In this document: positions 212 to 43,914 of the stretch, in pieces
How positions within the stretch are numbered: the first letter of the stretch is position 1
How the letters are laid out: each line of letters opens with the position of its first letter
DNA from: Acidimicrobiia bacterium
GTDB taxonomy: Bacteria; Actinomycetota; Acidimicrobiia; Acidimicrobiales; Bin134
Reading direction: 5' to 3'
DNA length: 64,000 bases
Assembly (NCBI GenBank): GCA_009842675.1
Contig: VYEX01000021.1
Span: 11,572 to 75,571, forward strand
Position numbers and translations under genes: made by a program
The notes under the pieces: generated by a model
What the model was told of the DNA's origin: nothing
The model's input: only the letters and a program-made list of their open reading frames with translations
Databases searched by the model: none

Positions 212-519
212 TAGTCGTCGTGCTCCATGGTGGCCCACAAGCCGTGCTCGTGCAGGCGAAAGACATCCATCTCCGCCTTCTCCTTGGGGCCGTCCGACAC
301 CACGGCGCGGCCCTTGTAGTGAACATCCAGCATCAACTGGGTGGCCTTCTCTTTGCTGTAGCCGAACAGCTTCTGGAAGACGAAGGTCACGTACGACATC
401 AGGTTGATGGGGTCATTCCACACGATCACCTTCCAGGGCCGGTCGGGCCGCACGTCCGTTTCACCGGTGGTTTCTCTCACCTCCGAGGGCGCAATTTCGA
501 CGGGCGCGGCGGGGGTCAT
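211..519 (-). CDS. clpS: ATP-dependent Clp protease adaptor ClpS
   Basis: C-terminal 80 aa read WKVIVWNDPINLMSYVTFVFQKLFGYSKEKATQLMLDVHYKGRAVV..., a typical ClpS core. I chose the internal ATG at 519 (MTPAAPVEI...), which forms an ATGA-type overlap with the ctaA stop. The ORF stays open up to 762. Confidence 0.88.
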   Translation of the reverse strand: MTPAAPVEIAPSEVRETTGETDVRPDRPWKVIVWNDPINLMSYVTFVFQKLFGYSKEKATQLMLDVHYKGRAVVSDGPKEKAEMDVFRLHEHGLWATMEHDD

Positions 520-1427
520 GCCGGCACGGCCTGGGCGACGTCGGCCTCTGCCCGCACGAGCGGGCCTCTCACATTGAGCCAGAAGAACACGGTGGCTATC
601 CACAGTAGGGCGGCCCCGGCGATGTGCGCCCCCACCAGCAGCACCGGCACACCGGTGAAATACTGCACGTACCCGATGAGCCCTTGGGCCAGAGCCACCC
701 CAAACACGGTCCGACCCCAGAGCTGAGCCCGCTCGGGTGCGCCCCGGTGACGAAGCCACCACACCAGCCCGGCCAACACCACCAGCAGCACCACCACTGT
801 GGTCCCGTGAATCTGGGCCACATCTCTCACGGCCACGTCGATGCGCTCGGCGTCCTCATCGCCGCTGTGCGGCCCGGCGCCGGTGACGATGGTGCCGGTA
901 ACGATCACCACTGAGGTGATGGCCACGACCGCATTTCCCACCCAATGGGGCCGGGGTCGGGGCTCGCTTTGGCGTTCGTAATCCTCCGATGACCGCCAGA
1001 GCAGAACCACCGCATTCCACAAAAGCACCATCGACAAGAGGAAGTGGCCGATCACCAGCGCCGGAGGCAGCTCGTAGAGCACGACCAATCCACCCAGCAC
1101 TATCTGGGCCAGCACGCCGGCCACCAAGCCCCACGACAGCCACACCAGATCAGACCGCCGCGGCGCTCGCCAGTGGGAACCCAAAACGGCGGCGATCACG
1201 ATGGCCGAAACCAGTCCGGTGATGAGCCGGTTGATGAATTCGATCATGGCGTGGGTCTCCAGCGGAGCCACCAGCTGGTCGTTGTCGCACGCTGGCCAAT
1301 CGGGGCAGCCCAGCCCGGACCCAGTGAGCCGGACCGCGCCCCCGCTTACGATGATCAATGCCAAAAGAGCCAGCGCCCAAATGGTGATCTTGCGGTAGGT
1401 AGCGGGAGAAACCCGGCGTTGGATCAC
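516..1427 (-). CDS. ctaA: heme A synthase (COX15/CtaA family)
   Basis: Polytopic membrane protein with N-terminal GGAVRLTGSGLGCPDWPAC and conserved His in TM segments (THAMIEFINR, GHFLL, AQIHG, GAHIAG). Divergent from ctaB, as in many Gram-positives. Confidence 0.85.
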   Translation of the reverse strand: MIQRRVSPATYRKITIWALALLALIIVSGGAVRLTGSGLGCPDWPACDNDQLVAPLETHAMIEFINRLITGLVSAIVIAAVLGSHWRAPRRSDLVWLSWGLVAGVLAQIVLGGLVVLYELPPALVIGHFLLSMVLLWNAVVLLWRSSEDYERQSEPRPRPHWVGNAVVAITSVVIVTGTIVTGAGPHSGDEDAERIDVAVRDVAQIHGTTVVVLLVVLAGLVWWLRHRGAPERAQLWGRTVFGVALAQGLIGYVQYFTGVPVLLVGAHIAGAALLWIATVFFWLNVRGPLVRAEADVAQAVPA

Positions 1428-1667
1428 GCCCCGAATTGTACGGGTCGCCTGTGACAGTCGGTCATCCCAAGCTGGGGGTTTTCAGGTCGATTATCGCGGG
1501 CAGAGGCCATGCCGGATACCTTGGCCTGCCCTGCGCCGAAACCGTACTCTGGGCTGGTCATGGGTGTCACCCGCTTGTCTGCTCGCAGCCGCACGCGCGT
1601 TGCCGAACCGAACACAAGCCCCGGTATCAGCCCTGGTCGCCTTTCCTCTCGCAACCCCCTGCGCTCA

Positions 1668-2528
1668 ATGCGGGCCTATGTTGCCCTGACAAAGCCCCGC
1701 ATTATCGAACTGCTGCTGGTAACCACCGTGCCCACCATGGTGGTAGCCGACCGGGGCATTCCCTCGGTGTGGCTGATGGTCGCCACCGTTGTCGGTGGGA
1801 CGCTGGCCGCCGGCGGTGCCAATGCCATCAACATGTACGTGGATCGCGACATCGATCGGCTGATGGAACGGACCAAGAACCGGCCCCTGGTAACCGGCGA
1901 GATCGCCGCCCCACGAGCCCTGGTCTTTGCCATCGCCCTCGAGGTACTGGCCTTCGTCTGGCTGTGGGGGTTTGTAAACCTGCTCAGCGCGATACTGGCG
2001 GTGTCGGCCACCGCGTTCTATGTGTTCGTTTACACGCTGTGGCTCAAGCGCACTTCTTCTCGCAACATAATCATCGGTGGGGCCGCCGGGGCCGTGCCCG
2101 TGCTGGTGGGCTGGGCGGCGGTCACCAACAGCCTCGACTGGGCGCCGCTGGTGCTGTTCGGCGTCATCTTCTACTGGACGCCCCCTCATTTCTGGGCCCT
2201 GGCCATCCGCTATCGCGACGACTATCGGGCGGCCAGCGTTCCCATGCTGCCCGCAGTCGCCAGCACTCGCACCACCGCGGTGCGGATGATTGGCTACACC
2301 GTGGTTCTGTGGGGGCTGTCGCTGCTGTTCAGCGCGATAGGCGAGATGGGCCTGGTGTACTTGGTGAGCGCCGTGGTGTTGGGAGCCGTCTTCTTGTACT
2401 ACGCCGTCCAAGTGCTGCGCACCCAAGCAACCGCGTCGGCAATGCGGCTGTTTTCTTACTCCATTACCTACATAACGCTGCTGTTCGCAGCGATGGTTGT
2501 CGACCAGGTGGTTCGCACCGGTGTTTAG
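1668..2528 (+). CDS. ctaB: protoheme IX farnesyltransferase (heme O synthase)
   Basis: MRAYVALTKPRIIELLLVTT..., GGANAINMYVDRDIDRLMERTKNRPL and YWTPPHFWALA are UbiA-family CtaB/CyoE motifs. The ORF is open from 1509. The ATG at 1668 was chosen to match the family N-terminus. Confidence 0.9.
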   Translation: MRAYVALTKPRIIELLLVTTVPTMVVADRGIPSVWLMVATVVGGTLAAGGANAINMYVDRDIDRLMERTKNRPLVTGEIAAPRALVFAIALEVLAFVWLWGFVNLLSAILAVSATAFYVFVYTLWLKRTSSRNIIIGGAAGAVPVLVGWAAVTNSLDWAPLVLFGVIFYWTPPHFWALAIRYRDDYRAASVPMLPAVASTRTTAVRMIGYTVVLWGLSLLFSAIGEMGLVYLVSAVVLGAVFLYYAVQVLRTQATASAMRLFSYSITYITLLFAAMVVDQVVRTGV

Positions 2529-2633: not shown

Positions 2634-4277
2634 ATGACTCTTACTGAAACGAGGCCAGAAGCAGAAGCGGTCGCGGCAGGCGACGACTCGAGGCCGGCGA
2701 CCCAGTCGTCGGCCCCCCAGTGGACCCCTCCGACCGGCTTGGCTCGATTCCTGAGCACCGGCGACCACATGACCATCGGCCAGATGTATGTGGTCTTCTC
2801 GCTTGTCCTGGCGGGGTTGGCCCTGACCCTGGGCATGCTGATGGGCATCGAGCAGGCCGACATCGACGGAGGCTTCGGCGTCTTCAGCAACGCCAACGAG
2901 GTTTTCCAGGTATTCGGCCTCTACCGGACCACGCTGATTCTGTGCGGTTTGGTGCCTTTGTTCTTGGGCCTGGCCACCGCATTGGTTCCCCGCCAACTTG
3001 ATGCCTCTTCAATGGCATTCCCACGCGCCGCGGCCGCGGCGTTCTGGACTTGGCTGGTGGGCGCCATTACCCACATCGTGGCCACCTTTGCCTACGGCGG
3101 GCTGGGCTCGGTGCAAGCCGGCGCGGCCCGCGAGCAGTCGGTGGAACTGACCGTGCTTTCGCTGGGCCTGATCAGCTTGGGCCTTCTGGTCGGTTCTGGG
3201 GTGGTGTTCACCACCTTGGTCACCCAGCGCCCGTCGGGGATGGACCTTCTCCAGATGCCCGCCTTCTCGTGGTCGATGCTGGTGGCCACCGGTGTGTGGC
3301 TGTTCTCGTTGCCGGTGCTGCTGGCCAACTTGATTATTTCTTGGGTGGACATGAGGGGGGCCGACGCCCTGGCCTTCGGCGGGGGAGGCGCCCCCTTCGA
3401 TCAGGTTGCCTGGGCGTTTGACGCTCCTCAGGTGTTCGCCTGGACGATCCCACTGCTCGGCATCACCGCCGAGGTGTTCACCTCCGCCCACCGCAGCAGC
3501 CCCAAGATGTTCGAGCCCATGGCCTTCATCGTGGGGGCCTTCGGCTTCTTCTCTTTCGGCGCCTGGGCCCAGAGCTTCTTCGACAGCGCCGACCCCACCG
3601 CCACAGATGCCCACGTCGTGACCAGCGAGGTGCTGTTCACCGCGTTCGCCCTGGCTATCGCCCTGATGGTGGTGGCCTACGGGGGTTGGCTGGCGTTCAA
3701 CGCCTACTCGGCCGGACAGCGCCCGCAGATCACCCCGCAGTTCGCCCTGGTCACCGTGTCCGGCGCCCTGCTGACCGCCGCGGCGGTGACCGGTGTGTTG
3801 CGGGTGGCCGAACCCGCGCTGGGCGTGCTGCGAGAGGCCGACGGCGACATCTGGCGGGGTTTCTTCGACGCCATGGACGACCTCGAAACCTCCAGCCTGG
3901 TCAACGGGTTGATGAATTTCGCGGTACTGGCCGGGCTGCTGGCCGCAGTGGCCGGGCTCTTCCACTGGGCCCCCAAAATGCTGGGCCGCTCTCTCAACGC
4001 ACCCCTGGGGTTCTTGGCCGTGCTGCCGCTGGCCGGGGGCGCAATCCTCATCGGGGCCACCGATGTGCTGAGCGGATTCTTCGACCAACCGGACCGGCCC
4101 TTCGAAACCGGCAGCATCGGCGACATCGACGCGCTCGGCTTCGTGGAAGCCCTGAATGTGATCGGGCTGATTGGCTACGTCGCCGTGCTGGGCGGTTTGG
4201 CGCTAGTGGCGCTGAACGTGGCCCGCAGCCTCGCCACAGCACCGACGGCCGAGGCCGAGAGTGAAGGGGCGACCTGA
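2634..4277 (+). CDS. heme-copper oxidase subunit I-like membrane protein lacking the canonical His ligands (degenerate CoxI paralog)
   Basis: Collinear by eye with the CtaD in this window: DHMTIGQMY/DHKRIGIMY, MAFPRAAAAAFW/VAFPRLNAFSFW, LQMPAFSW/FRMPVLTW, HWAPKMLG/YWWPKAFG. All ligand motifs are substituted (see findings). Intact 547-aa ORF, GC3-rich, and its stop overlaps the next start (TGATG). Confidence 0.8.
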   Translation: MTLTETRPEAEAVAAGDDSRPATQSSAPQWTPPTGLARFLSTGDHMTIGQMYVVFSLVLAGLALTLGMLMGIEQADIDGGFGVFSNANEVFQVFGLYRTTLILCGLVPLFLGLATALVPRQLDASSMAFPRAAAAAFWTWLVGAITHIVATFAYGGLGSVQAGAAREQSVELTVLSLGLISLGLLVGSGVVFTTLVTQRPSGMDLLQMPAFSWSMLVATGVWLFSLPVLLANLIISWVDMRGADALAFGGGGAPFDQVAWAFDAPQVFAWTIPLLGITAEVFTSAHRSSPKMFEPMAFIVGAFGFFSFGAWAQSFFDSADPTATDAHVVTSEVLFTAFALAIALMVVAYGGWLAFNAYSAGQRPQITPQFALVTVSGALLTAAAVTGVLRVAEPALGVLREADGDIWRGFFDAMDDLETSSLVNGLMNFAVLAGLLAAVAGLFHWAPKMLGRSLNAPLGFLAVLPLAGGAILIGATDVLSGFFDQPDRPFETGSIGDIDALGFVEALNVIGLIGYVAVLGGLALVALNVARSLATAPTAEAESEGAT

Positions 4278-4873
4278 TGGCTGACATCCCCGTCGGAACT
4301 CCCCTGGCCGCTCCGCTGCCCCGCCAGCGCACCCTGCTGGTGGGCACCGTCTTCGGCACCGCCGCCACGCTCATGTACTTCGCCGGCCTGCTGGGCGTGT
4401 ACTTGCGGGAGCGGTCCGATGCCCTATCCGGTGGCGGGGAGTGGATCCCCTCTGGCGCAAACATCCAGTTGGCCCCGCCCACCGTTGCGGCGTGGACCAT
4501 GCTCATGTCGGTGGTCACCATGCAGTGGGCGGTGTATTCCATTGCCCGCGACGACCGCGCCCACGCCATCATGGCCACCGCGCTGACCACCCTGTTCGGC
4601 CTCTCCGTGGTGGTCACAACCTCATTCCAATACACCGAGATGGGCTTGGTGGCCGACGAGTCGATCGCGGCCGTGTTGATCTACACCATTTCGGCGTCGC
4701 ATCTGGTCATGATCGCTGTCGGCTTGGTGTTCCTGCTCCTGATGGCCTTTCGGGCCTTGGCCGGCCAGTACAGCAGCCGCCAGACCGACGGCTTCGTGGC
4801 CGCGTCCATCTATTGGTACGCCGTTGTATTCGTCTATGTCGTCATCTGGACGGCGATCTTCGTGCTGAAGTAG
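4277..4873 (+). CDS. cytochrome c oxidase subunit III-like membrane protein (paralog of CtaE)
   Basis: About five TM segments, collinear with the CtaE in this window: TMLMSVVTMQWAVYSIARDD vs FVLLMSSLTMVFAVSSIARGD, and ASIYWYAVVFVYVVIWTAIFVL vs IIGLYWHFVDIVWIVIFTIVYL. Start overlaps the upstream stop by 1 nt. Confidence 0.7.
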   Translation: MADIPVGTPLAAPLPRQRTLLVGTVFGTAATLMYFAGLLGVYLRERSDALSGGGEWIPSGANIQLAPPTVAAWTMLMSVVTMQWAVYSIARDDRAHAIMATALTTLFGLSVVVTTSFQYTEMGLVADESIAAVLIYTISASHLVMIAVGLVFLLLMAFRALAGQYSSRQTDGFVAASIYWYAVVFVYVVIWTAIFVLK

Positions 4874-4880: not shown

Positions 4881-5714
4881 GTGTTCACCCCCGGCTTCCG
4901 TTTGTTCTTCGGTTTCACCCTCGCCGCGGTGGCCGCGGCCGCCGTCTATGGCGTGGCCAGCGGCAGCGCGGGCGAAATCGAGTACTTCGCGGTGCTCAAC
5001 GTGGAGACCTGGGTGGGCGTGCTCAGCCTGGGCTACAAGGGCGGCATCGGCGACCACGTTGGTTATGTGGTGCTGATGGGCTTCGCCGTCCTGTCCGCAT
5101 TGGTGGCCCTGTTCTTGGTGGCCTTCCGCGACGCCGACGCCGAGTCGGTGGGCGAGCTGATGGATGACGGCCGGACCCCTGAGACCCAAGCCAATCTGGA
5201 GGCCAACTACTGGCCGGCTGTGGCCGCCTTCGGAGCGGGGGCCATGATCGTAGGGCTGGTCACCCACGCCACCATCTTCGTGATCGGACTGGTGATCGTG
5301 GGAGCGGCGTTGTTCGAGTGGATGTTGGCGGCGTGGGCCGATCGGGCCACCGCCGACCCAGAGGTCAACCGCAATCTCCGAAACCGCATCATGCGCCCGG
5401 TGGAGTATCCGGTGACTGCCGCGCTGGGTGTTGCGGTACTGGTGCTGGCCCTGTCCCGCGTGTTCTTGACCGTGTCGCAGTTCAGCGCGGTGATGGTGGC
5501 TGGTTCGGTGGCCACCGTGATCTTCTTTATCGCGGTGGTGTTCGCCATTGGCCCCAAGATCAGCCGGTCGGTAATCGCCGGAACGGTGGCCCTGGTGTGT
5601 GTGGGTGTTTTGGTCGCTGGCGTGGTAACCGCGGCGATGGGCTCGCGCGACTTCCACCACAAGGCGCCGGCAGGCGAACACGGTGAACCCGCGACCGAGG
5701 ACGGAGGCCACTAG
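4881..5714 (+). CDS. polytopic membrane protein of unknown function with a subunit-IV-like two-helix hairpin
   Basis: GTG start 8 nt after the previous stop. Multiple hydrophobic helices. The segment NYWPAVAAFGAGAMIVGLVTHATIFVIGLVIVGAALFEWML aligns without gaps to the CtaD C-terminal extension SYWPIVLGGGILLVGYGIIYNLWLAAAGLVLLVAAIYGWIL. His/acid-rich tail ...HHKAPAGEHGEPATEDGGH. Confidence 0.6.
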   Translation: MFTPGFRLFFGFTLAAVAAAAVYGVASGSAGEIEYFAVLNVETWVGVLSLGYKGGIGDHVGYVVLMGFAVLSALVALFLVAFRDADAESVGELMDDGRTPETQANLEANYWPAVAAFGAGAMIVGLVTHATIFVIGLVIVGAALFEWMLAAWADRATADPEVNRNLRNRIMRPVEYPVTAALGVAVLVLALSRVFLTVSQFSAVMVAGSVATVIFFIAVVFAIGPKISRSVIAGTVALVCVGVLVAGVVTAAMGSRDFHHKAPAGEHGEPATEDGGH

Positions 5715-5748: not shown

Positions 5749-7011
5749 ATGAGCAAGCGAGCCAGGGGCCTGGTCTGGCTGTCAAGCCTGTTGGTGATCT
5801 TCGGCGCCATTGCCTTGATCGTGGTCGCCATCGTGGTCGACAAAGACCACCCGTTATCCACCCTGTCGCCGGTCGGCCGTCAAGGACGCGACATCGCCGA
5901 GCTCATCAACCCCATCTTCATCGTGGCCGGCGTGGTCTTCTTCCTGGTTCAGGGGGCGGTTCTGGCGCTGTGGTGGCGCTTCCGGGTAGCGGGCTCCGAC
6001 TCCGGTGACGGTGAATTCGGGTACTACGAAGACGACGAGTTCCCCGACCAGACCCACGGCAACAACCGCCTTGAGATCGCTTGGACCATTGTGCCCACCG
6101 TGCTGTTGGCCGTTATCTCGGTGTTCACCCTGGTGGCGCTGTTCGCCCTCGACGATGTGAAGGCATCTGACGAGGATCTTGTTGTAACTGTTATCGGCCA
6201 GCAGTGGTGGTGGGAGTACCAGTACCACCTGGACGGCGACACCGACACCGCACCTGATTTTGTGACCGCCAACGAACTGGTTATCCCGGTCGGGGTTGAT
6301 GTGGCCCTAGACATCAAATCGCGCGACGTGATCCACTCCTTCTGGATTCCCAAGCTGAACGGCAAGCGGGACGCCGTGCCCGGTCGCAGCCACGACTGGG
6401 TGATCCAAGCCGAAGAGCCCGGTCGCTTTCGGGGGCAGTGCACCGAGTTCTGCGGCCTGTCCCACGGCTACATGAAGATGGTGGCGGTGGCGCTGCCGCG
6501 TGCAGAATTCGCCCAGTGGAGAGACAATCAGATCACCCCGGCCGACATGCCCGAAGAGGGCACGCAGGCGGGCGAGGGGTGGGCCACCTTTAGCCAGCAG
6601 TGCGCCAATTGCCACGTGATCAACGGGGTCACTTCAGCGGCCAACCGCGGCGGCGACCCTGAATCGGCCCCCGACACCTGGGACATCTACGGCGAGTTCA
6701 ATGGCCCACACGCCGGCACTTACACCGACGAACTGGTGGCCGGCGCGGCCCCCAACCTGACCCACCTGATGACCCGGACCACGTTTGCCGGGTCGGCGTT
6801 CGATCTCTATCTCGACGCCGGCGACGACATCCCGTATCTGGTCTTGTCCGACAAAGGCACGCTCAACCGGGGCGAACTTGAGGCCTGGATATTCAACGCC
6901 CCCGAGCGCAAGCCGGCCGACGCCGACGACCTCCGGGGCATGCCCGCCCGCACCGGACTGAGTCCGGACGACATCGACAATGTCGTTGCCTTCCTGTCCA
7001 CCCTCGACTGA
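5749..7011 (+). CDS. ctaC: cytochrome c oxidase subunit II with fused C-terminal cytochrome c domain (caa3-type)
   Basis: CuA site DVIHSFWIPKLNGKRD...CTEFCGLSHGYMKM. C-terminal heme-binding CANCH with a downstream GMPA Met-ligand region. Two N-terminal TM helices. Confidence 0.93.
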   Translation: MSKRARGLVWLSSLLVIFGAIALIVVAIVVDKDHPLSTLSPVGRQGRDIAELINPIFIVAGVVFFLVQGAVLALWWRFRVAGSDSGDGEFGYYEDDEFPDQTHGNNRLEIAWTIVPTVLLAVISVFTLVALFALDDVKASDEDLVVTVIGQQWWWEYQYHLDGDTDTAPDFVTANELVIPVGVDVALDIKSRDVIHSFWIPKLNGKRDAVPGRSHDWVIQAEEPGRFRGQCTEFCGLSHGYMKMVAVALPRAEFAQWRDNQITPADMPEEGTQAGEGWATFSQQCANCHVINGVTSAANRGGDPESAPDTWDIYGEFNGPHAGTYTDELVAGAAPNLTHLMTRTTFAGSAFDLYLDAGDDIPYLVLSDKGTLNRGELEAWIFNAPERKPADADDLRGMPARTGLSPDDIDNVVAFLSTLD

Positions 7012-7030
7012 TTGTGATTGCGAAGAGCCG

Positions 7031-9136
7031 ATGACCATCACCGATCGCACTATCACCGCCCCCGAGGAAACTCTGGCGCTGCCAGCGGGCCCGACCATTG
7101 CCCATCGCCCCCTCGGTGTCTTCACCCGACCCCAGGGCAGCGAGGGCTGGACGAGTTGGCTTTTCACCGTCGACCACAAGCGCATCGGCATTATGTACGG
7201 CGCGGCCGCTCTGTTCTTCTTCCTCGTGGGCGGCGCCGAGGCCCTGTTCATCCGCCTCCAGCTGGCCACCCCCAACGGCTCGGTCATAGGGGCCGGTACC
7301 TACAACGGCGTGTTCACAATGCACGGCGTGACCATGGTGTTCCTGGTGATCATGCCCATGGCCGCAGCCTTCGCCAACTACCTGCTCCCGCTGCAAGTGG
7401 GCGCCCGGGACGTTGCTTTCCCGCGGCTGAACGCGTTCAGCTTCTGGTGTTTCTTGGCCGGTGGCCTCTTGCTCACCTCGTCGGTCCTGATCGGCGGCTG
7501 GTTCCAAAACGCCCCTGACGGCGGCTGGTTCGCCTACGCCCCCAACACCGGCCTGCTCTTCTCACCCTCCAAGGGGATCGACTTCTACGCCGTCGGCTTG
7601 CAGATCCTGGGCGTTGCCTCGCTGGTCAGCGCCATCAATCTGATCGTGACCGTGTTGAATATGCGAACTAAGGGGATGAGTTTCTTCCGGATGCCGGTTC
7701 TCACCTGGATGTTGCTCATCACCCAGTTCCTGCTGCTGTTCGCCCTCCCGGTGATCACCGTGGCCCTATTCCTGTTGATGTTCGACCGACTGTGGGACGC
7801 CAACTTCTTCAATGTGGAGGCCGGGGCCGACCCGCTGCTGTGGCAGCACCTGTTCTGGATATTCGGCCACCCCGAGGTGTACATCCTGATATTGCCCGCC
7901 TTCGGGATCGTGTCGGAGATCATCCCCACGTTCGCTCGCAAGCCGCTGTTCGGCTACCACTTCATGGTTGCCTCCGGCATCGCCATCGGCTTTATGGGAT
8001 GGGGCGTGTGGGCCCACCACATGTTCACCTCTGGTGTCGGGCCGCTTTCGGTGGCCGCGTTCTCGGTATCCACCATGTTCATTGCTGTGCCCACCGGGGT
8101 GAAGATCCTCAACTGGCTGGCCACCATGTATCGGGGACGGCTGCGATTTACCACCCCCATGCTCTACGCCGTGGGCGTGGTGTCGATGTTCACCATCGGT
8201 GGCTTGTCCGGGGTGACCCACGCCATCGCACCCTCCGACACCCAGCAGACCGACACCTATTACATCGTGGCCCACTTCCACTATGTGATCTTCGGCGGGG
8301 CGCTGCTCGGGTTGTTCGGCGGCTTTTACTACTGGTGGCCCAAGGCATTCGGCTACAAGCTCAACGAGGGATGGGGCAAGGCCAGCTTCTGGGTGATGCT
8401 CATCGGGTTCAACTTCACCTTCGGACCCATGCACATCCTCGGTTTGCAGGGGATGTCGCGTCGCATAGCCACCTACCGGGCCGATGAGGGCTTTGCGCTG
8501 TGGAATATGGTGGCCACCATCAGCTCGTTCGTGATCGCGCTGGGCGTGGCCATGTTCTTCTGGAACGTGTTCGTGAGCACCCGGAACTGGCGGCGGGCCG
8601 GCCGACCCGATGTGGGCCCCGACCCCTGGGATGCCCGCGGCTTGGAGTGGATGACCGCCTCTCCGGTGCCCGAGCACAATTTCGACTCCGAGATCGAGGT
8701 GGAACGCCTCGACGAGTTCTGGCACCGCAAATACGGCAAGGACGAGAGCGGCCGGATAGTAAGGGCCGCTCCCACCTCTGAGGTGGCCCACGACGGCAGC
8801 AACACCAACGTGCACTTGCCGTCTCCGTCGTACTGGCCCATCGTCTTGGGCGGGGGCATCCTGCTGGTGGGCTACGGCATCATCTACAACCTGTGGCTGG
8901 CTGCCGCTGGCCTCGTGCTGTTGGTTGCAGCCATCTACGGCTGGATACTGGAGCCGGCCGACGACCCCGACGCCGCCGGCCACCACGACGACCACTCCGA
9001 CGATGGCGATGACCATGGAGACCCCGGCAGCAACGGCGGTCCCAGCGGCAACGGCGATTCGGCAGAAACCGAGGGTCCGGAGGATCGGGGTGGCGATTCG
9101 GCAGAAACCGAGGAGGAGGCTGCGACCGTTGGCTGA
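7031..9136 (+). CDS. ctaD: cytochrome c oxidase subunit I with C-terminal two-helix extension and acidic tail
   Basis: All canonical motifs are present: FTMHGVTMVF, WQHLFWIFGHPEVYILILP, WAHHMFTSG, VAHFHYVIFGG. The ATG at 7031 follows the ctaC stop (the ORF is open from 6980). The extension ...PSPSYWPIVLGGG... is followed by a D/H/G-rich tail. Confidence 0.95.
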   Translation: MTITDRTITAPEETLALPAGPTIAHRPLGVFTRPQGSEGWTSWLFTVDHKRIGIMYGAAALFFFLVGGAEALFIRLQLATPNGSVIGAGTYNGVFTMHGVTMVFLVIMPMAAAFANYLLPLQVGARDVAFPRLNAFSFWCFLAGGLLLTSSVLIGGWFQNAPDGGWFAYAPNTGLLFSPSKGIDFYAVGLQILGVASLVSAINLIVTVLNMRTKGMSFFRMPVLTWMLLITQFLLLFALPVITVALFLLMFDRLWDANFFNVEAGADPLLWQHLFWIFGHPEVYILILPAFGIVSEIIPTFARKPLFGYHFMVASGIAIGFMGWGVWAHHMFTSGVGPLSVAAFSVSTMFIAVPTGVKILNWLATMYRGRLRFTTPMLYAVGVVSMFTIGGLSGVTHAIAPSDTQQTDTYYIVAHFHYVIFGGALLGLFGGFYYWWPKAFGYKLNEGWGKASFWVMLIGFNFTFGPMHILGLQGMSRRIATYRADEGFALWNMVATISSFVIALGVAMFFWNVFVSTRNWRRAGRPDVGPDPWDARGLEWMTASPVPEHNFDSEIEVERLDEFWHRKYGKDESGRIVRAAPTSEVAHDGSNTNVHLPSPSYWPIVLGGGILLVGYGIIYNLWLAAAGLVLLVAAIYGWILEPADDPDAAGHHDDHSDDGDDHGDPGSNGGPSGNGDSAETEGPEDRGGDSAETEEEAATVG

Positions 9137-9140
9137 CGTA

Positions 9141-9767
9141 ATGACCTCCGAAACAGGGGCCGCTGAGGCCGCCACCCAATCTGCTCACGCCGAGGAGCAC
9201 CACACCAGCACCGGTATCTCCAACGAGAAGCTGGCCATGTGGGTGTTCCTGGGTTCGGAGTGCCTGCTATTTGGCGGACTCATCTCCGTCTACATGTTCA
9301 ACAAGGGGCGCATCGGCCCCAACGACGTCGGCCCCAACGACGTGTTCGACATCCCCTTCACCTCGGTCAGCTCGTTCGTGCTTTTGATGAGCTCACTGAC
9401 AATGGTGTTCGCAGTGTCGTCCATCGCCCGGGGCGATCTGCGGGGCAACCGCATCTGGCTAACCACCACCGCCGCGTTGGGAGCCACATTCGTGGCCGGG
9501 CAGGTGTACGAGTTCACCGCCTTCTACAGCGAGGGCCTCGGATTCACCACCAACCTGTTCGGATCGGCCTTCTACGCCCTGACCGGCTTCCACGGGGCCC
9601 ACGTCACCATCGGCATCATCATGCTGATGTCGCTGCTCGTGATGTCGCTGCGGGGCAACCTCACCCAAGAGCGGGCCGAGACCGTGGAGATCATCGGCTT
9701 GTACTGGCACTTTGTCGACATCGTATGGATCGTGATCTTCACGATCGTGTACCTCTTCCCGCAGTAG
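9141..9767 (+). CDS. ctaE: cytochrome c oxidase subunit III
   Basis: MTSETGAAEA...KLAMWVFLGSECLLFGGLI..., FYALTGFHGAHVTIG and LYWHFVDIVWIVIF are classic subunit III motifs. The ATG at 9141 sits just after the ctaD stop. Confidence 0.9.
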   Translation: MTSETGAAEAATQSAHAEEHHTSTGISNEKLAMWVFLGSECLLFGGLISVYMFNKGRIGPNDVGPNDVFDIPFTSVSSFVLLMSSLTMVFAVSSIARGDLRGNRIWLTTTAALGATFVAGQVYEFTAFYSEGLGFTTNLFGSAFYALTGFHGAHVTIGIIMLMSLLVMSLRGNLTQERAETVEIIGLYWHFVDIVWIVIFTIVYLFPQ

Positions 9768-9775
9768 GATCCGCT

Positions 9776-10165
9776 ATGGCCACCGTCACCCCTGAATCCC
9801 CTGACACGGGCCACACCCCCGACGAACACGCGTCGGACGGCGGTCAAATGGCCGAGCACGCCCAATCCACTGGTAAGCAGAATCACGCCCACCCCACCGA
9901 TTGGCTCTATGTCAAGGTGGCCATCGCCCTCGGGCTGCTCACCGCATTCGAGGTGTTCACCTACTTCGAGTCGCTCCACGGGTGGGGCGACACCGCAATA
10001 ATCATCATGCTCATCCTCATGATGTTGGTGAAGTTCTTCTTGGTGGTGGCCTTCTTCATGCACCTGAAGTTCGACTCTCCGATCTTCTGGCGATTATTCG
10101 TATTCGGCCTGATCTTGGCCATGGCGGTGTACATGGTCATGCTGACGGCGTTTCGCATCTGGTAG
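9776..10165 (+). CDS. ctaF: cytochrome c oxidase subunit IV (prokaryotic CtaF/QoxD-type small subunit)
   Basis: 129 aa with three TM helices. LMMLVKFFLVVAFFMHLKFD resembles the bacterial COX4_pro family. Located directly after ctaE. The ORF frame is open from 9239, but the ATG at 9776 fits the gene order. Confidence 0.75.
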   Translation: MATVTPESPDTGHTPDEHASDGGQMAEHAQSTGKQNHAHPTDWLYVKVAIALGLLTAFEVFTYFESLHGWGDTAIIIMLILMMLVKFFLVVAFFMHLKFDSPIFWRLFVFGLILAMAVYMVMLTAFRIW

Positions 10166-10172: not shown

Positions 10173-11084
10173 ATGGCCTTCGCGGCTGACACCGATATCT
10201 GGCGGTACCAGCCCCACGCCGAAGTCTGGATAATCCTGCTGGCCGCGATAGCCATGGCCTGGTACGCGGCCCGGATCATCGCCCCCAAAGCGGCGCCCGT
10301 CGGTGAGTCCCCCTTTGCCCGCCACCACAAGCTGGCCTTCGTCGGGGCGATGGTACTGCTGTGGGTGGCCAGCGACTGGCCGATGCACGACATCTCAGAG
10401 GAGTACCTGTATTCGGTCCACATGATCCAGCACCTGCTCATCACGCTGGTGGTGCCGCCGCTGATATGGGCGGCCATTCCCGAATGGCTGGCCCGGCTGG
10501 CGCTCAGCGGCGATGGCAGCGTGGGGGTTTGGGTGCGGCGGCTGGCCCGGCCGGTGGCCGCCGGGTTGCTGTTCAACTTCATGGTGGCGGTGAGCCACAT
10601 TCCCTGGGTGGTCAACACGTCGGTGGAAAGCGGCGCACTGCATTACTTCGTACATCTGCTGCTGTTCGCCTCGGCTATGGCGATGTGGCTGCCGGTGTGC
10701 GGCCCGATTCCTGAGCTGCACATGCGGGAGCCGGGCAAGATGGTCTACTTGTTCTTGATGTCGGTGGTGCCGACCGTGCCCGGCGGATTCTTGACCTTTG
10801 CCCAGGGAGCGGTTTACAGCGCCTACGACCACGACGTCCGCTTGTGGGGCATCGGCCTCCAGGCCGACCAGCAAGCCGCTGGGCTGATAATGAAATTGGT
10901 GGGCGGCATGTATTTGTGGACGTGGATCGGGGTGCTGTTTTTCCGCTGGGCCGGCGCCCAGCAGCGGGTCAACACCCAGATGCGGGTGGTGACCACCGTT
11001 CCGTCCGGCCCCATCGCCGCTGACACCCGGGTCCCGGCCACTTCGGGTTCCAACGGCTCTAACTCCACCAACGGTTCTCGATGA
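10173..11084 (+). CDS. ctaG: cytochrome c oxidase assembly factor CtaG (Bacillus/actinobacterial caa3_CtaG type)
   Basis: Polytopic membrane protein with SVHMIQHLLITLVVPPLI and HYFVHLLLFASAMAMWLPV motifs. Positioned at the end of the cta operon. Its stop overlaps the serS start (ATGA). Confidence 0.8.
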   Translation: MAFAADTDIWRYQPHAEVWIILLAAIAMAWYAARIIAPKAAPVGESPFARHHKLAFVGAMVLLWVASDWPMHDISEEYLYSVHMIQHLLITLVVPPLIWAAIPEWLARLALSGDGSVGVWVRRLARPVAAGLLFNFMVAVSHIPWVVNTSVESGALHYFVHLLLFASAMAMWLPVCGPIPELHMREPGKMVYLFLMSVVPTVPGGFLTFAQGAVYSAYDHDVRLWGIGLQADQQAAGLIMKLVGGMYLWTWIGVLFFRWAGAQQRVNTQMRVVTTVPSGPIAADTRVPATSGSNGSNSTNGSR

Positions 11085-12355
11085 TCGACCTGCGCCTGGT
11101 GCGCACCGACTACGACGCGGTTGCGGCTGCGATGGCCCGTCGGCGGATCGACCTGTCGGAGCTGGAGCAGGTGGCGGCCCTGGATGAGCGCCACCGCCAT
11201 CTCACCACCGAGCGCGATGCGATGCGCCATGGGGTCAAGGAGCTGTCCCAGCAAGTAGGCCAACTCAAGCGCGACGGGCGCGACGCCGAAGCCGATACAG
11301 CCGCAGCCGAGAGCCGCAAACGGGGCGACCAGGCCAAGGCCCTGGCTGCCGAGGCCGACGCAGTGGCGGCCGAGATTCACGACCTGCTGCTGCACATCCC
11401 CAATCTGCCCGCCCCCGATGCCCCCGACGGAGCCGATGAAGGCGACAATCCGGTATTGAGGGTGCAGAACTTCGACCCCGATTCCTACGGCGAGCACCAG
11501 CGGGTGCCCCACTGGGAGTTCGCGGTGGAGGCGGGCTGGCTGGATATGGAGCGGGCGGCCAAGCTGTCGGGGTCCATGTTCGCCATGCTCCGGGGTCCGG
11601 GAGCGTCTTTGGCCCGGGCCATGGTCCAGTTCGGGCTAGACCGCAACGCCGACCGCTACGAGGAGATCCGCCCGCCCACCCTGGTCCACAGCCAGGTCAT
11701 GGTGAGCACCGGCCAGCTCCCCAAGTTCGCCGACGACGCCTATTGGCTGGAGCGTGACGACCTGTGGGCGATACCCACCGCCGAGGTTCCGCTCACCTCG
11801 CTGGCCTCTGGCGAGATCCTCGACGAGGCCGACCTGCCGATGAGGATGATGGCCTACACCCCCTGCTACCGCCGGGAGGCCGGGGCCGCCGGCCGTGACA
11901 CTCGAGGACTGCTAAGGGTTCACGAGTTCGACAAGGTGGAGATCTTGGCCTACGCCACTCCCGAGCAGGCCCCCGCGGCACACGCCGAAATCTTGGAGCG
12001 GGCCGAAGCCGCGGTGGCTGAGTTGGGCTTGGCCTACCGCATCGTGGACATCTGCACCGGCGATTTGGGCCAGGCCCACCATCGGTCGTGGGATGTGGAG
12101 GTATACGCCCCTGGTGCCGACCAGTGGCTGGAGGTGTCGTCGGTCTCCTGGTATTCCGACTATCAGGCCCGTCGGGCCAATCTGCGCTACCGGCCCGAGG
12201 GGGAAAAGGGCACCCGCATCCTCCACACCCTCAACGGCTCGGCCCTGGCCGTGCCCCGAGTGTGGGCCGCCCTGGTCGAAACCCACCGCCAGCCCGACGG
12301 GTCCGTGGTCATTCCCGAGGCGCTGCGCCCTTACCTCGGCCGCGACGTCCTGTAG
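11081..12355 (+). CDS. serS: seryl-tRNA synthetase
   Basis: MIDLRLVRTDYDAV... N-terminal coiled-coil arm. Class II core motifs: TAEVPLTSL, YTPCYRREAGAAGRDTRGLLRVHEFDKVE, LNGSALAVPR. Confidence 0.95.
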   Translation: MIDLRLVRTDYDAVAAAMARRRIDLSELEQVAALDERHRHLTTERDAMRHGVKELSQQVGQLKRDGRDAEADTAAAESRKRGDQAKALAAEADAVAAEIHDLLLHIPNLPAPDAPDGADEGDNPVLRVQNFDPDSYGEHQRVPHWEFAVEAGWLDMERAAKLSGSMFAMLRGPGASLARAMVQFGLDRNADRYEEIRPPTLVHSQVMVSTGQLPKFADDAYWLERDDLWAIPTAEVPLTSLASGEILDEADLPMRMMAYTPCYRREAGAAGRDTRGLLRVHEFDKVEILAYATPEQAPAAHAEILERAEAAVAELGLAYRIVDICTGDLGQAHHRSWDVEVYAPGADQWLEVSSVSWYSDYQARRANLRYRPEGEKGTRILHTLNGSALAVPRVWAALVETHRQPDGSVVIPEALRPYLGRDVL

Positions 12356-13822: not shown

Positions 13823-14950
13823 CTATGGGCTCACGCTTTCGGGCACCGGGTCTTCGGCGCGGCGCCCAGACCGCAATCGCACCCACAGCACCAGCGCCAC
13901 CAGCAGCCCAGCCAGCACCTCCCAGAGCACGGGCCACCGAGCGGGATCGGCGAACCAGTTGCCCACCCGCTCGGGTATATCAGCAATGGTTCGCAGAATC
14001 GGCAGTACTAGGAGATCGCCCTGATATTGGAACGCTTCCGACATCACGTAGCCCACCGCCACGATGGCGGAAGCGACAAAAAGTTGGGGTTGGGGGATGC
14101 GGCGGCGGAACGCCCACAGCAGCACGGCCAGCACTAGGAAGGCGGTGGCCAGGCCGAAACGGTTGCCGCCCACGTCGATGATCCAGTTCTCCAGTCGGAC
14201 CGATACCCGGTTGGAGGCCTCCACGAAGGGGTTGTTGGCTTCGAAGTCGTCGTGCAGCAGAACTTGGACCTCCCACCAGCCGTAGAACCCGAGCACCACG
14301 CCGGCCACCACCAAGAAACCACCGGAGATCTTGTTTATGTGGGGCAGCAGGCGCCGCATGTGAGCGGTAACCCCGGAGCGTCCCATGGCCACGGCCAGAG
14401 TTAGGAAGGTGATCACCAGCCCCATTCCCAGGGCGTAGGCCAAGAATCTCAGGGTTCCCTCCCACACCCCGTCGGTACTGAATGAGCCGCTCACGCTGCC
14501 GAAGAACACCGGGCTGGCGCAGCCCAGCGACACCACCGCATACGACACCCCAAACAGGAACATAGAGATCAGGCCCTGGCTGTCTCCGCCTTTCGACAAT
14601 CGGGGCACAGAGATCTTGGGTTCGAAGCCGGCCAGCATGGCGATGCCCAGCACCACCATGAGTCCGCTGATCACCAGCGTGATCCACGGACCTCGGTCAG
14701 CAATGGTGGAGGTGGAAATGAGCGACGAGGTAAGCGCGCCGATGATGCCGAAGAAGGCCACGAATCCGGCGGTTAGGGTGAGCCCCACCAGCAACCCCCG
14801 GAGGACGTTTCGCCCGGTGTCGGTGGACTGGTCTTGGTTGCCGATGCCTAGGAAGTAGGCCAGGTACGCCGGCAGCATGGCGAACCCGCACGGGTTGACT
14901 GCGGCGACCAGGCCGGCTCCGAATGGAACCGCCAAATCGAGGTCGAACAC
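13823..14950 (-). CDS. ccdA: cytochrome c biogenesis thiol-reductant transporter CcdA/DsbD family, with extra C-terminal TM region
   Basis: N-terminal GLVAAVNPCGFAMLPAYL and the later YAVVSLGCASPVF are the two conserved Cys-containing CcdA motifs. About 130 additional C-terminal residues contain further TM helices. Confidence 0.85.
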   Translation of the reverse strand: MFDLDLAVPFGAGLVAAVNPCGFAMLPAYLAYFLGIGNQDQSTDTGRNVLRGLLVGLTLTAGFVAFFGIIGALTSSLISTSTIADRGPWITLVISGLMVVLGIAMLAGFEPKISVPRLSKGGDSQGLISMFLFGVSYAVVSLGCASPVFFGSVSGSFSTDGVWEGTLRFLAYALGMGLVITFLTLAVAMGRSGVTAHMRRLLPHINKISGGFLVVAGVVLGFYGWWEVQVLLHDDFEANNPFVEASNRVSVRLENWIIDVGGNRFGLATAFLVLAVLLWAFRRRIPQPQLFVASAIVAVGYVMSEAFQYQGDLLVLPILRTIADIPERVGNWFADPARWPVLWEVLAGLLVALVLWVRLRSGRRAEDPVPESVSP

Positions 14951-27875: not shown

Positions 27876-29126
27876 GTGTCTGTACTGGCGATAGGCATAA
27901 ATCACCGATCAGCACCGCTCGGCCTGTTGGAGCGGATGACCATCGATGAGTCCGACCTGCCCAAGGCACTGGCCGATCTGATCGGTCGAGAGAACGTTTC
28001 CGAAGCGGTGGTGCTGTCCACCTGCAACCGCATTGAGGTCTACGTCTTCGCTGAGACCTTCCACGGGGCCTTCCAGAATGTGAGGGATTTCCTCTCCGAG
28101 ACCGCCCATGTGGCCCCCGAGCAGTTCAGCGATGCGCTATATGCCCACTACGAGGCCGATGCGGTATCGCACCTGTTCTCGGTGGCCTGCGGATTGGACT
28201 CAGCCGTGCTCGGCGAGAACGAGATCCAAGGCCAGGTGAAGAGCGCGTGGGAGGCGGCTCGGTTAGAGGGCACCTGCGGTTCGTCGCTCAACAATCTTTT
28301 CCGCCACGCCACGGAGGTGGGCAAGCGGGCCCGCACCGAGACCGGTATTTCCCGCCATATCACCTCGGTGTCTCAGGCGGCGGTAGCCCTGGCCACCGAG
28401 CGCCTGAGCGGTTTGGCCGGCCGACGGCTGATGGTGCTGGGTGCCGGGGACATGGGCGAGGGTATGGCGGCCAGCCTGGCCAAGAGCGAGGCCGCCGAAG
28501 TTGTGGTGGCCAATCGCACCACCGGACGAGCTGAGGAATTGGCCCAGCGGATCGGAGGCCGTGCGGTGGGTCTTCACGAGATGTCCGCCGAGCTGGCTGT
28601 GGTGGACGTTCTTCTTACATCCACCGGTGCTTCGTCAATGATTCTGGAGCATTGTGACGTGGCCGAGATCATGGCGGCGCGGGCCAACCGCCCGCTATTG
28701 ATCGTGGATGTGGCCGTGCCCCGCGACGTGGACCCCGCGGCGGGCGATCTGGATGGGGTGACCCTGCTGGACATGGACGATCTGCGGGCTTTCGCCGATC
28801 GGGGCCTGCGAGAGCGCCGCGCCGAGTTGGACCGGGTGCGGAGCATCATCGATGACGAACTGAACCGCTATCTGGACCTCAGCTCGGCCCGTGAGGCGGC
28901 ACCCTTGATTGCCGCCTTCCGGACACGGGCCGAGGTCTTGCGCAAAGAAGAGTTGGATCGCCATGCGGGCGGGCTGTCTCCGGCCGAGCGGGAAGCGGTG
29001 GAAGCGGCTACTCGCGGCTTGGTGGGCAAGCTCTTGCACGAGCCCACTGTCAGGCTGAAGGACGCGGCCGGATCGCCGCGGGGCGATCGCCTGGCCGAAG
29101 CGCTCCGGGATCTGTTCGATCTCTAG
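27876..29126 (+). CDS. hemA: glutamyl-tRNA reductase
   Basis: VLAIGINHRSAPLGLLERM, VLSTCNRIEVY (catalytic Cys), GENEIQGQVK and VLGAGDMGE. GTG start. Confidence 0.93.
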   Translation: MSVLAIGINHRSAPLGLLERMTIDESDLPKALADLIGRENVSEAVVLSTCNRIEVYVFAETFHGAFQNVRDFLSETAHVAPEQFSDALYAHYEADAVSHLFSVACGLDSAVLGENEIQGQVKSAWEAARLEGTCGSSLNNLFRHATEVGKRARTETGISRHITSVSQAAVALATERLSGLAGRRLMVLGAGDMGEGMAASLAKSEAAEVVVANRTTGRAEELAQRIGGRAVGLHEMSAELAVVDVLLTSTGASSMILEHCDVAEIMAARANRPLLIVDVAVPRDVDPAAGDLDGVTLLDMDDLRAFADRGLRERRAELDRVRSIIDDELNRYLDLSSAREAAPLIAAFRTRAEVLRKEELDRHAGGLSPAEREAVEAATRGLVGKLLHEPTVRLKDAAGSPRGDRLAEALRDLFDL

Positions 29127-29130
29127 AGCC

Positions 29131-29991
29131 GTGCTGCGCGCCGCCACCCGGGGCAGCGCCTTGGCCCGCTGGCAAACCGCCCACATCGCTGAATTGCTGG
29201 GATCCACCGCCGACGTCGAACCGATTTTGGTGACCACCACCGGCGACCGGTTGGGCGACGAGCCCATCTCGGCCATCGGCGGCAAGGGCGTGTTCGTCAA
29301 GGAGGTACAAGCTGCGGTGCTCGACAGTCGAGCCGACATCGCCGTTCACTCGGCCAAGGATCTGCCCGCAGCCACCCCCGACGGTCTCGTGATTGCCGCG
29401 GTGTCCCGCCGGGCTGACCCTCGAGATGCACTAGTGGGCAGTCGCTTGTCCGATCTTGTCCAAGGCGCCCTGGTGGCCACCGGTTCGGCCCGCCGCCGAG
29501 TGCAGCTTCGGGAGCTTCGCCCCGACCTGCGATTCGCCGAGCTGCGGGGCAACATCGGCACCCGGCTGAAAAAGGCCTCCGACTACGACGCGGTGGTGAT
29601 GGCCAAGGCCGCTTTGGACCGCCTGGGCGAGCACCCGACGGTGGTCGATGTGTTGGGCTGTGAGGTCATGGTGCCCCAAGTGGGCCAGGGTGCCCTGGCG
29701 GTGGAGTGCCGAGAAGACAACCACCGGACCCGCGCTTTGCTGGCGGCCATTGAAGACCCCGTTACCCGCCGGGAGGTGGATGCTGAGCGAGCCTTCCTGA
29801 CTACCCTGGGCGGCGATTGCACCCTGCCCGCCGGCGCCCACGCCCACGTTCGAGGTGACACATTGGTAATGCGGGCCGTATTGGCCGACAGCCCCGACGG
29901 GCGGTGCCACTCTGTGGTCGGCGAAGGCGACGATGGGGAGGCCTTAGGGCGGGACTTAGCCCGCCAGCTTCTCGACTTGGTGGCCCGATGA
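29131..29991 (+). CDS. hemC: hydroxymethylbilane synthase (porphobilinogen deaminase)
   Basis: RAATRGSALARWQT, GGKGVFVKEVQ, AVHSAKDLP, LRGNIGTRLKK and the cofactor Cys in GGDCTLP. Confidence 0.93.
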   Translation: MLRAATRGSALARWQTAHIAELLGSTADVEPILVTTTGDRLGDEPISAIGGKGVFVKEVQAAVLDSRADIAVHSAKDLPAATPDGLVIAAVSRRADPRDALVGSRLSDLVQGALVATGSARRRVQLRELRPDLRFAELRGNIGTRLKKASDYDAVVMAKAALDRLGEHPTVVDVLGCEVMVPQVGQGALAVECREDNHRTRALLAAIEDPVTRREVDAERAFLTTLGGDCTLPAGAHAHVRGDTLVMRAVLADSPDGRCHSVVGEGDDGEALGRDLARQLLDLVAR

Positions 29992-30036
29992 CTGTGTATC
30001 TCATGCCGGCGTGGGTGGCCCGATGACCGTATATCT
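29979..30036. repeat. 35-nt-offset direct duplication of the hemC-stop / cobA-start junction
   Basis: GGTGGCCCGATGACTGTGTATCT (29979..30001) and GGTGGCCCGATGACCGTATATCT (30014..30036) match at 21 of 23 positions. Copy 1 holds the hemC TGA, copy 2 the cobA-hemD ATG. Confidence 0.9.
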
Positions 30037-37742: not shown

Positions 37743-37751
37743 GAACTGACG

Positions 37752-43912: not shown

Positions 43913-43914
43913 CC

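Follow-up and report, generated by a model that had tools for sequence, protein, structure and literature searches.

The A-family heme-copper oxidase (HCO) subunit I, CtaD or CoxA, is a 12-transmembrane (TM) protein that carries six ligand histidines, a cross-linked tyrosine, D- and K-channels, a gating glutamate and arginines that bind the heme propionates. The six histidines are the usual inclusion criterion in surveys of HCOs, and since such surveys normally require them, homologues without these histidines tend to be discarded or mis-annotated. The nitric oxide reductases (NORs), which are divergent members of the superfamily, retain all six histidines together with two hemes and a non-heme metal. 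Dead paralogues that have been kept as subunits of respiratory complexes are known elsewhere, in the core 1 and core 2 proteins of the mitochondrial bc1 complex, which are inactive relatives of the mitochondrial processing peptidase (MPP), and in the gamma-carbonic-anhydrase subunits of plant complex I. Here we describe a gene in a 64,000-nucleotide stretch of DNA from an Acidimicrobiia bacterium (assembly GCA_009842675.1, contig VYEX01000021.1, positions 11,572 to 75,571 of the forward strand; hereafter the window, numbered from its first letter) that lies within a caa3 oxidase locus and shares the 12-TM fold and collinear sequence of A-family subunit I, yet has none of these catalytic features. 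This gene, termed I' (2634..4277, + strand, ATG start, 547 aa), is almost certainly a selected, non-catalytic paralogue of the genuine subunit I gene ctaD (6980..9136, +), and is a member of a class-wide Acidimicrobiia family rather than an oddity of a single genome.

The I' reading frame is open from 2634 to 4277, with a G+C content at third codon positions (GC3) of 0.85, and the neighbouring genes are alike; the GC3-rich, uninterrupted frame described in a first-pass annotation of the same DNA therefore holds. The product matches the Pfam COX1 profile PF00115 (E 7.5e-33, 114.5 bits against a gathering score of 34.8), with the match ending at profile position 328, and aligns by BLASTP to the genuine CtaD encoded in cis with 25% identity over 486 columns (E 1e-23). 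This alignment contains each of the four blocks that the first-pass annotation had seen in both I' and CtaD, and the motifs common to I' and A-family subunit I comprise DH, P..G, AFPR, FW, MP.F.W, a Trp before helix VI, and W.PK. Against the equivalog model TIGR02891 (CtaD_CoxA), I' scores 138.4 bits and falls well below the cut-off of 670.75, whereas CtaD reaches 679.5 bits. An AlphaFold (AF2) model of I', built on a 27-sequence family alignment, has a predicted local distance difference test score (pLDDT) of 82.7, a predicted TM-score (pTM) of 0.86 and 12 long helices, and Foldseek superposes this predicted fold on the solved A-family subunit I chains of bovine, Paracoccus, Rhodobacter and Mycobacterium oxidases, E. 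coli bo3 and B. subtilis aa3-600 with TM-scores of 0.73–0.81 over ~520 columns. As judged from these matches and the predicted model, I' is a full-length 12-helix homologue of A-family subunit I, which bears out the earlier description of an intact 12-TM subunit I paralogue. The listed sequence and fold matches of I' are all to A-family proteins (aa3, caa3, bo3, and aa3-600), with no C-family (cbb3/CcoN-type) entries among them.

The conserved fold of I' does not extend to the active site. The ligand register was taken from four independent, concordant alignments, namely BLASTP, a phmmer match to QoxB of B. subtilis, and two MAFFT alignments that include 117 and 218 homologues, and in bovine numbering the His ligands of subunit I are replaced throughout. 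The helix II His of heme a is Tyr97 in I', the CuB ligand His240 is Ala264, the CuB ligands His290 and His291 are Gln313 and Ser314, and the helix X ligands His376 of heme a3 and His378 of heme a are Leu and Asn respectively. The six columns that are all His in a functional HCO or NOR subunit I therefore read Y, A, Q, S, L, and N, and both the COX1 profile alignment and the structural superposition likewise place no His in any ligand column. The cross-linked Tyr244 is also lost, being Phe in the alignments. The MAFFT alignment with 218 homologues shows the D-channel residues Asn80, Asp91, and Asn98 to be Thr, Ser, and Ala, the gating Glu242 to be Gln, and the propionate-binding Arg438 and Arg439 to be replaced, while the K-channel Lys319 is non-polar or aromatic (Ala or Tyr in I' by alignment, and mostly Phe, Leu, Tyr, or Val across the family). 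Of the features expected of an A-family proton pump, I' thus has neither the D-channel, the Glu, Lys319, nor the cross-linked Tyr, nor an equivalog-level score. No migrated or displaced His ligand is available to the protein, as I' contains only five His residues and the only one conserved in the family, His45, belongs to the N-terminal DH motif common to CtaD and lies outside the membrane core.

With the ligands, Tyr, D- and K-channel residues, and propionate Args lost, I' cannot reduce O2, carry electrons or pump protons as known oxidases do; it cannot be an oxidase of a known type, and lacks any route of a known kind for electrons, O2, or protons. For the clade of the window, the earlier claim that every canonical metal-ligand His is replaced, precluding binding of heme a, heme a3, and CuB, is upheld by the four alignments. 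A quinol-binding site of the bo3/aa3-600 type was also considered and rejected, with the helix I Arg and Asp positions hydrophobic in I' in the alignment to QoxB, as read by eye.

Loss of the binuclear centre is shared by the entire I' family. Among the 219 members included in our ligand comparison, none keeps the CuB triad, alone or together with the heme a3 His, and the channel residues are absent in all. The low-spin heme His pair of helices II and X is nevertheless kept in 100 of the 219, and the statement that every ligand is replaced, whilst correct for the clade of the window, does not apply to the family as a whole, about half of which retains this pair. In a rough neighbour-joining (NJ) tree rooted on real CtaDs, the family emerges on a long stem (0.97), its basal branches carry the heme pair, one clade carries it in 95 of 104 members, and the clade of the window in 1 of 110; because of this distribution, the binuclear centre appears to have been lost in the ancestor of the family, and the low-spin heme site secondarily. 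The residue following the helix II ligand is Gly, Ser, or Ala in 98 of the 100 heme-pair members, as in real CtaD, and Arg in 99 of the 119 heme-less members, the equivalent residues in the window being Tyr97-Arg98 (codons 2922-2927). Further freshwater lineages also lack the heme site and show L-R, N-R, Q-R, and S-R patterns. The helix I Glu (Glu73) is conserved in the heme-pair and heme-less groups alike, and the Arg and Glu may form a charged pair (salt bridge) that fills the emptied heme a pocket. Such covariation of the Arg would point to a stabilised empty pocket rather than to decay.

The I' gene is maintained across a broad range of species. A genome scan with one genome per GTDB species recovered 442 loci encoding an I' relative, of which 80 were kept, and the I' open reading frame (ORF) is uninterrupted in all 80. 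The kept loci are labelled Acidimicrobiia, Acidimicrobiales, Acidimicrobiaceae, Candidatus (Ca.) Poriferisocius, Ca. Microthrix, 'marine group Sva0996', Actinomycetota/Actinobacteria, or simply 'bacterium'; members of the family come from sponge, marine, freshwater, and soil samples, and are labelled Acidimicrobiia wherever a class is given. The window itself is 95–96% identical to genomes of Ca. Poriferisocius (sponge-associated 'Porifer-' names). Within the Poriferisocius clade, the median pairwise ratio of nonsynonymous to synonymous substitution rates (dN/dS) of I' is 0.186 (586 pairs), compared with 0.187 for ctaC, 0.139 for ctaB, 0.134 for ctaG, 0.122 for ctaD, and 0.138 and 0.132 for III' and F', the two genes that follow I'. 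Some orthologues of neighbouring genes were flagged as broken, probably through artefacts of the start and extent rules, and these flags were not used. I' shows neither the frameshifts or stops nor the dN/dS near 1 of a pseudogene, and the first-pass view that it is maintained rather than decaying is in keeping with 80 of 80 intact frames and a dN/dS of 0.19 against 0.12–0.19 for the neighbouring oxidase genes. This survey of orthologues found purifying selection and conserved synteny, the outcome that had been set against frameshifts or neutral drift in the earlier annotation.

I' does not stand alone, as I', III', and F' constitute one module. III' (4277..4873, +, 198 aa) is a 5-TM paralogue of oxidase subunit III (Pfam COX3) whose start overlaps the I' stop in the sequence TGATG (stop 4275-4277, ATG 4277-4279), with a Shine-Dalgarno-like GAAGGGG upstream, confirming the translational coupling of I' to the next gene that had been proposed. 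III' matches Pfam COX3 PF00510 with an E value of 5.7e-12 and 46.5 bits (cut-off 23.8), has aa3_CtaE_Actin as its best NCBIfam model (E 8e-17, under the equivalog cut-offs), is 25% identical to the real CtaE (E 1e-12), and matches residues 73-256 of the solved human COX3 (E 2.6e-14) as well as M. smegmatis CtaE. These matches identify III' as a genuine subunit III homologue; in alignments read by eye, the conserved Glu of the SE..FF motif and the His and Asp of the YWHFVD motif are replaced.

F' (4881..5714, +, 277 aa) is a 7-TM conserved membrane protein, and consists of a probably CtaF-like N-terminal part of four TM helices, an invariant cytoplasmic loop (EW..AW.DRATGDP..N..LRNRIM.P.E.P), three further TM helices, and a His- and acid-rich tail. 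The F' of the window has no Pfam match itself and its AF2 model is poor (pLDDT 53), and its assignment was made through its relatives, 925 of which were recovered by a profile search of 1.84 billion representatives. Residues 105-152 of F' align to the C-terminal hairpin of the real CtaD with an hhalign probability of 88% (E 3e-6), weak matches to PF12270 occur in 4 of 27 F' family members, and the relative P0407 matches both PF12270 (31.1 bits, cut-off 26.9) and Cupredoxin_1. A first profile of F' (A2) gave no PDB matches, whilst a broader profile (A3) matches C. glutamicum CtaF (7q21_F) at positions 4-121, spanning four TM helices, with an E value of 2.2e-6, and also matches mycobacterial CtaF and blue-copper proteins. 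Taken together, these profile comparisons indicate that F' is probably CtaF-like, CtaF being the actinobacterial subunit IV. Of two other candidate assignments, a relationship of F' to the C-terminal part of cytochrome b was rejected (a weak NCBIfam E value of 0.0019, with an hhalign probability of 0.5% to the corresponding protein of the window), and a degenerate subunit II made up of TM helices 6-7 and the cupredoxin found in F' relatives is unsupported (hhalign 0.2% to the ctaC product of the window).

Many F' relatives are 340–410 aa long and carry a C-terminal periplasmic cupredoxin where the F' of the window has its tail. This domain resembles type-1 cupredoxins, and an intact H..C..H..M type-1 copper site is present in the relatives P0391, P0407, and P0437 and in loci L088, L091, L105, and L145. 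Its copper ligands are degenerate in most lineages (L116, L123, and others; P0458 also has the domain), and the domain is missing altogether from the clade of the window. Only at L105 is the copper site intact and the state of I' also known, and this I' has the heme pair; at loci with a heme-less I', F' carries a copper-less domain in 14 cases and no domain in 15. The family thus presents a natural series of loss, from heme with blue copper, to heme only, to neither, and although the numbers are small, this suggests that an ancestral copper-to-heme electron-transfer module may have decayed stepwise, with the lineage of the window as its fully cofactor-free end state.

The module is embedded in a caa3 oxidase locus, in the order ctaA(-), ctaB, I', III', F', ctaC-cytochrome c, ctaD, ctaE, coxIV, ctaG, serS. 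The heme A synthase gene ctaA (516..1427, -; Pfam COX15-CtaA, E 2e-25) is divergent from the cluster, and the heme O synthase gene ctaB (1509..2528, +) is the first gene on the + strand (Pfam UbiA, E 2.9e-63; NCBIfam heme o synthase, 405 bits, cut-off 246). The genuine subunit II gene ctaC (5749..7011, +) encodes a fused mono-heme cytochrome c of the caa3 type, with Pfam matches to COX2, COX2_TM, and cytochrome c, a score of 181.8 bits against TIGR02866 CoxB (cut-off 147.7), the CuA motif CTEFCGLSHGYM, and one CXXCH. The real ctaD, whose start may instead be 7031, matches Pfam COX1 with an E value of 1e-153, and its ligand string NDNHHEYHHKDHHRR is complete in the MAFFT alignment with 218 homologues. 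Its C-terminus (8747-9136) comprises a two-helix extension, matching PF12270 at residues 611-658 and homologous to the C-terminal hairpin of CtaF (C. glutamicum CtaF, 7q21_F, E 8e-4), and then an acidic His/Asp-rich tail, GHHDDHSDDGDDHGD....

Downstream, ctaE (9141..9767, +, in the frame of ORF 8925-9767) encodes a genuine 5-TM subunit III that matches the NCBIfam CyoC, QoxC, and aa3_CtaE_Actin models with 135–143 bits, coxIV (9773..10165, +) a Bacillus/Thermus-type caa3 subunit IV (Pfam COX4_pro, E 5.4e-9; TIGR02229, E 9.4e-5 and below cut-off), and ctaG (10173..11084, +) a caa3-type assembly factor (Pfam Caa3_CtaG, E 4.4e-40). A 308-aa ORF at 9239-10165 was rejected as a single gene, with its Arg-rich N-terminal two thirds representing out-of-frame ctaE and only its C-terminal part (~9773-10165) a real COX4_pro protein. 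Beyond the oxidase genes, serS (11081-12355, +) shares its first 4 nt with the end of ctaG in the clade of the window and appears coupled to the oxidase operon. In many more distant loci, the retrieved stretch has the serS match farther downstream, has it on the other strand, or contains none.

Terminator or promoter signals above those of shuffled controls were not found inside the cluster, which together with the TGATG coupling suggests a single operon. The order from ctaB to ctaG is kept wherever the flanks reach, in the 80 species loci, including those with no more than 33–41% identity in I' and 68–75% in CtaD, in three distant members, and in ~45 metagenome loci of at least 4 kb (soil, desert, lake, and marine), and ctaA is divergent in those loci whose flank extends that far. 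The cta locus of B. subtilis consists of ctaA divergent from ctaBCDEFG, and the Acidimicrobiia locus looks like this arrangement with I', III', and F' added after ctaB and before ctaC.

The closest described counterpart of the inserted trio is the core of the actinobacterial bcc-aa3 supercomplex (M. smegmatis 6ADQ/6HWH and C. glutamicum 7Q21), whose CtaD, 5-TM CtaE, and CtaF are mirrored by I', III', and F', since I' scores best on mycobacterial CtaD, III' on actinobacterial CtaE, and the four N-terminal TM helices of F' are probably homologous to CtaF. The I' profile gives 307 bits to mycobacterial CtaD, 267 bits to corynebacterial CtaD, and 263 bits to B. subtilis QoxB, whereas the real CtaD of the locus shows the opposite preference, with 548 against 492 bits in favour of QoxB; III' similarly prefers the actinobacterial CtaE model, whilst the real CtaE scores equally on the CyoC, QoxC, and actinobacterial models. 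These score ratios and the relation of F' to CtaF would fit, albeit weakly given the long branch of the family, an origin of the trio from what is left of an actinobacterial-type aa3 core and not from a recent copying of its caa3 neighbours. Unlike the actinobacterial aa3 core, the trio has neither a partner subunit II nor cofactors, lies inside a Bacillus-like locus, and has in F' a probable CtaF homologue with three extra TM helices and relatives that carry a type-1 cupredoxin.

Our tentatively preferred explanation, which we regard as plausible rather than established, is that I', III', and F' form a cofactor-free membrane module that partners the active caa3 oxidase, or a supercomplex that contains it, in a structural role. 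The three proteins would assemble in the manner of a CtaD-CtaE-CtaF core without subunit II, with F' pairing with I' and III', since the real CtaD carries a fused CtaF-like hairpin, I' ends directly after helix XII, and F' supplies the hairpin. Such a 'ghost' core would accompany the active caa3 in the membrane at a fixed stoichiometry and would stabilise or organise the respiratory assembly, serving either as a pseudo-protomer or as an adaptor to the bc complex whose genes also lie in the window. The evidence for this structural partnership is the genomic linkage and the TGATG coupling, with the three genes lying between ctaB and ctaC in the caa3 operon and all under purifying selection. The function of the trio is most likely structural because it has outlived the loss of every redox cofactor, and the function common to the family is presumably cofactor-independent because the genes keep their position and selection with heme, with heme and copper, or with neither. 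Conservation within I' is highest from the end of helix II through helix III, across the IV-V loop and helix V, and in helix VII; helices II-III, V, and VII presumably make up the face turned towards subunit III, as would be expected if the contact between I' and III' had been preserved.

Several observations weigh against a purely structural partner. At long range I' evolves approximately twice as fast as the real CtaD (33–41% versus 68–75% identity), and the most invariant element of the module is the cytoplasmic loop of F' rather than any part of I'. The bis-His pair is strictly kept in 100 of the 219 members (95 of 104 in one clade of the NJ tree), so that lineages with the pair probably have a heme-dependent role and the function of the ancestor may have gone beyond a structural one. 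Furthermore, the position of the trio in the operon beside ctaB and ctaA fits an assembly factor equally well. The main alternative, less likely than a structural partner and in our view rather unlikely, is accordingly that I', III', and F' serve as a transient assembly scaffold or chaperone that mimics the core and holds heme A, subunit II, or copper before hand-over to CtaD, without forming part of the mature enzyme. The trio directly follows ctaB and lies close to the divergent ctaA, the last gene of the operon, ctaG, encodes an assembly factor, a Pfam scan found no Surf1-like gene in the cluster, about half of the I' family keeps the exact low-spin bis-His site and could hold heme A, and F' has His- and acid-rich periplasmic tails with a cupredoxin in its relatives. 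I' would share with Surf1/Shy1 and CtaG an oxidase-operon location and a possible role in heme or copper delivery, however it shares neither sequence nor fold with these factors and is instead a homologue of the client. The heme site is also dispensable, with the clade of the window and several freshwater lineages lacking it whilst their genes remain under the same selection, and the formyl-binding Arg38 and propionate-binding Arg438 and Arg439 are missing even from members with the heme pair. The translational coupling and the place of the trio among structural genes hint, weakly, at structural stoichiometry. The roles proposed in the first-pass annotation (scaffold, assembly chaperone, or supercomplex spacer) most likely include that of I', although its further option of a proton-conducting module is weakened by the loss of the D- and K-channel residues.

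A bolder form of the structural-partner explanation, somewhat more doubtful than the assembly scaffold, holds that the trio is the vestige of an ancestral actinobacterial aa3 core and survives as a 'ghost complex IV'. As a pseudo-protomer without cofactors, it would pair with the active Bacillus-type caa3 or dock this enzyme to the bc complex, having lost the O2-reducing centre first and then, in several lineages, the heme and the blue-copper entry domain. If true, this would be the first dead catalytic core subunit to serve as an architectural element of a respiratory chain. The remaining readings are progressively less likely. It is improbable that I' has been neofunctionalised for a role unrelated to the oxidase, such as an ion or solute pathway or lipid handling through its emptied pores, with co-transcription merely historical. 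The family does have specific conserved polar residues in or near the membrane (Glu73, Arg98, Thr115, Asn232, and Gln313) and a conserved insertion in the helix IX-X loop with Gly397 and Trp407, however the canonical proton-pathway residues have become Thr, Ser, Ala, Gln, or non-polar or aromatic, the conserved Arg/Glu pair resembles pocket filling and co-varies with heme loss, and linkage to the oxidase in every locus long enough would be unexpected for an unrelated function. We consider a residual redox role, with heme or another cofactor bound through non-His ligands such as Tyr97 for electron transfer, to be very improbable. In the Poriferisocius clade the helix II ligand column is uniformly Tyr, and other lineages of the family probably bind a low-spin heme alongside an intact blue-copper domain on F'. 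Against this, the helix II column of heme-less members varies (Y, S, G, F, L, N, and Q), as does the helix X column (N, E, S, Q, A, and V), an Arg adjoins the lost helix II ligand, the propionate-binding Args are absent, and the F' of the window has no cupredoxin domain. Lastly, the low identity of I' to CtaD (25%) and the end of its Pfam match at profile position 328 might suggest a decaying pseudogene or an error of register that hides a functional oxidase, but with 80 of 80 frames intact, a dN/dS of 0.19, a GC3 of 0.85, agreement of four alignments and a full-length structural match on the register, and only five His residues of which the one conserved lies outside the membrane core, the chance of this is negligible.

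I' is therefore unlike its closest parallels in several respects. Like the bc1 core proteins and the gamma-carbonic-anhydrases, it is a duplicate that has lost catalysis and been retained with an active respiratory complex; those paralogues are peripheral, soluble-domain proteins, whereas I' is a copy of the catalytic membrane core, in putative association with the active enzyme. Like the cytochrome c- and quinol-dependent NORs (cNOR and qNOR; NorB) and other divergent HCOs, it is a divergent superfamily member without canonical proton channels, but the NORs keep the six His, hemes, and metal of which I' has none. We know of no described cofactor-less subunit I. Full-text searches of the searchable literature, the coverage of which is incomplete, likewise returned no description of a ligand-less subunit I or of this Acidimicrobiia locus, and neither did the review of oxidase assembly factors PMC9145763. 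I' is best described as a pseudo-enzyme version of the oxidase core that comes with partner subunits of its own, its function being read from genomics.

In public (NCBI) annotation, members of the family such as P0017, P0026, P0035, P0036, and P0049 are named 'cbb3-type cytochrome c oxidase subunit I'. For I' this label is wrong twice, as the protein is neither of the C-family nor an oxidase. Since the mislabelled members are A-family-derived and without ligands, automated metabolic inference will over-count the oxidases of Acidimicrobiia, and counting I' as an oxidase inflates the respiratory capacity inferred from metagenomes. Additionally, the series of cofactor loss within the family offers a handle on non-catalytic roles of the oxidase scaffold, whether in supercomplex architecture, assembly, or lipid organisation.

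The window as a whole is a respiratory gene island. A b6f-like bc complex is encoded at 35955-39955 (+), comprising a split cytochrome b with N-terminal (35955-36911, +) and C-terminal (36954-37742, +) parts, a Rieske protein (37752-38624, +), and a 443-aa di-heme cytochrome c with two CXXCH motifs (38624-39955, +), and is followed by a 380-aa protein with no Pfam match and hydrophobic stretches near both ends (39952-41094, +). Directly downstream of the bc genes lies a complex I (nuo) operon at 41410-56251 (+), with genes for a NuoB-like protein (41410-42219, +), NuoD (42647-43912, +), NuoF (44532-45869, +), a 994-aa NuoG with a molybdopterin domain (45425-48409, +), and NuoL (51196-53163, +), as well as NuoM (53163-54749, +) and NuoN (54749-56251, +), both presumed solely on the basis of position and size. 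The opposite strand encodes, at 13823-14950 (-), a DsbD_TM/CcdA-like membrane protein of cytochrome c biogenesis whose long C-terminal extension has no Pfam match. Heme biosynthesis genes are also found near the oxidase locus (27876-32787, +), including hemA (27876-29126, +), a fused uroporphyrinogen-III methyltransferase/synthase gene (30011-31486, +), and a gene for a hemL-like aminotransferase (31534-32787, +).

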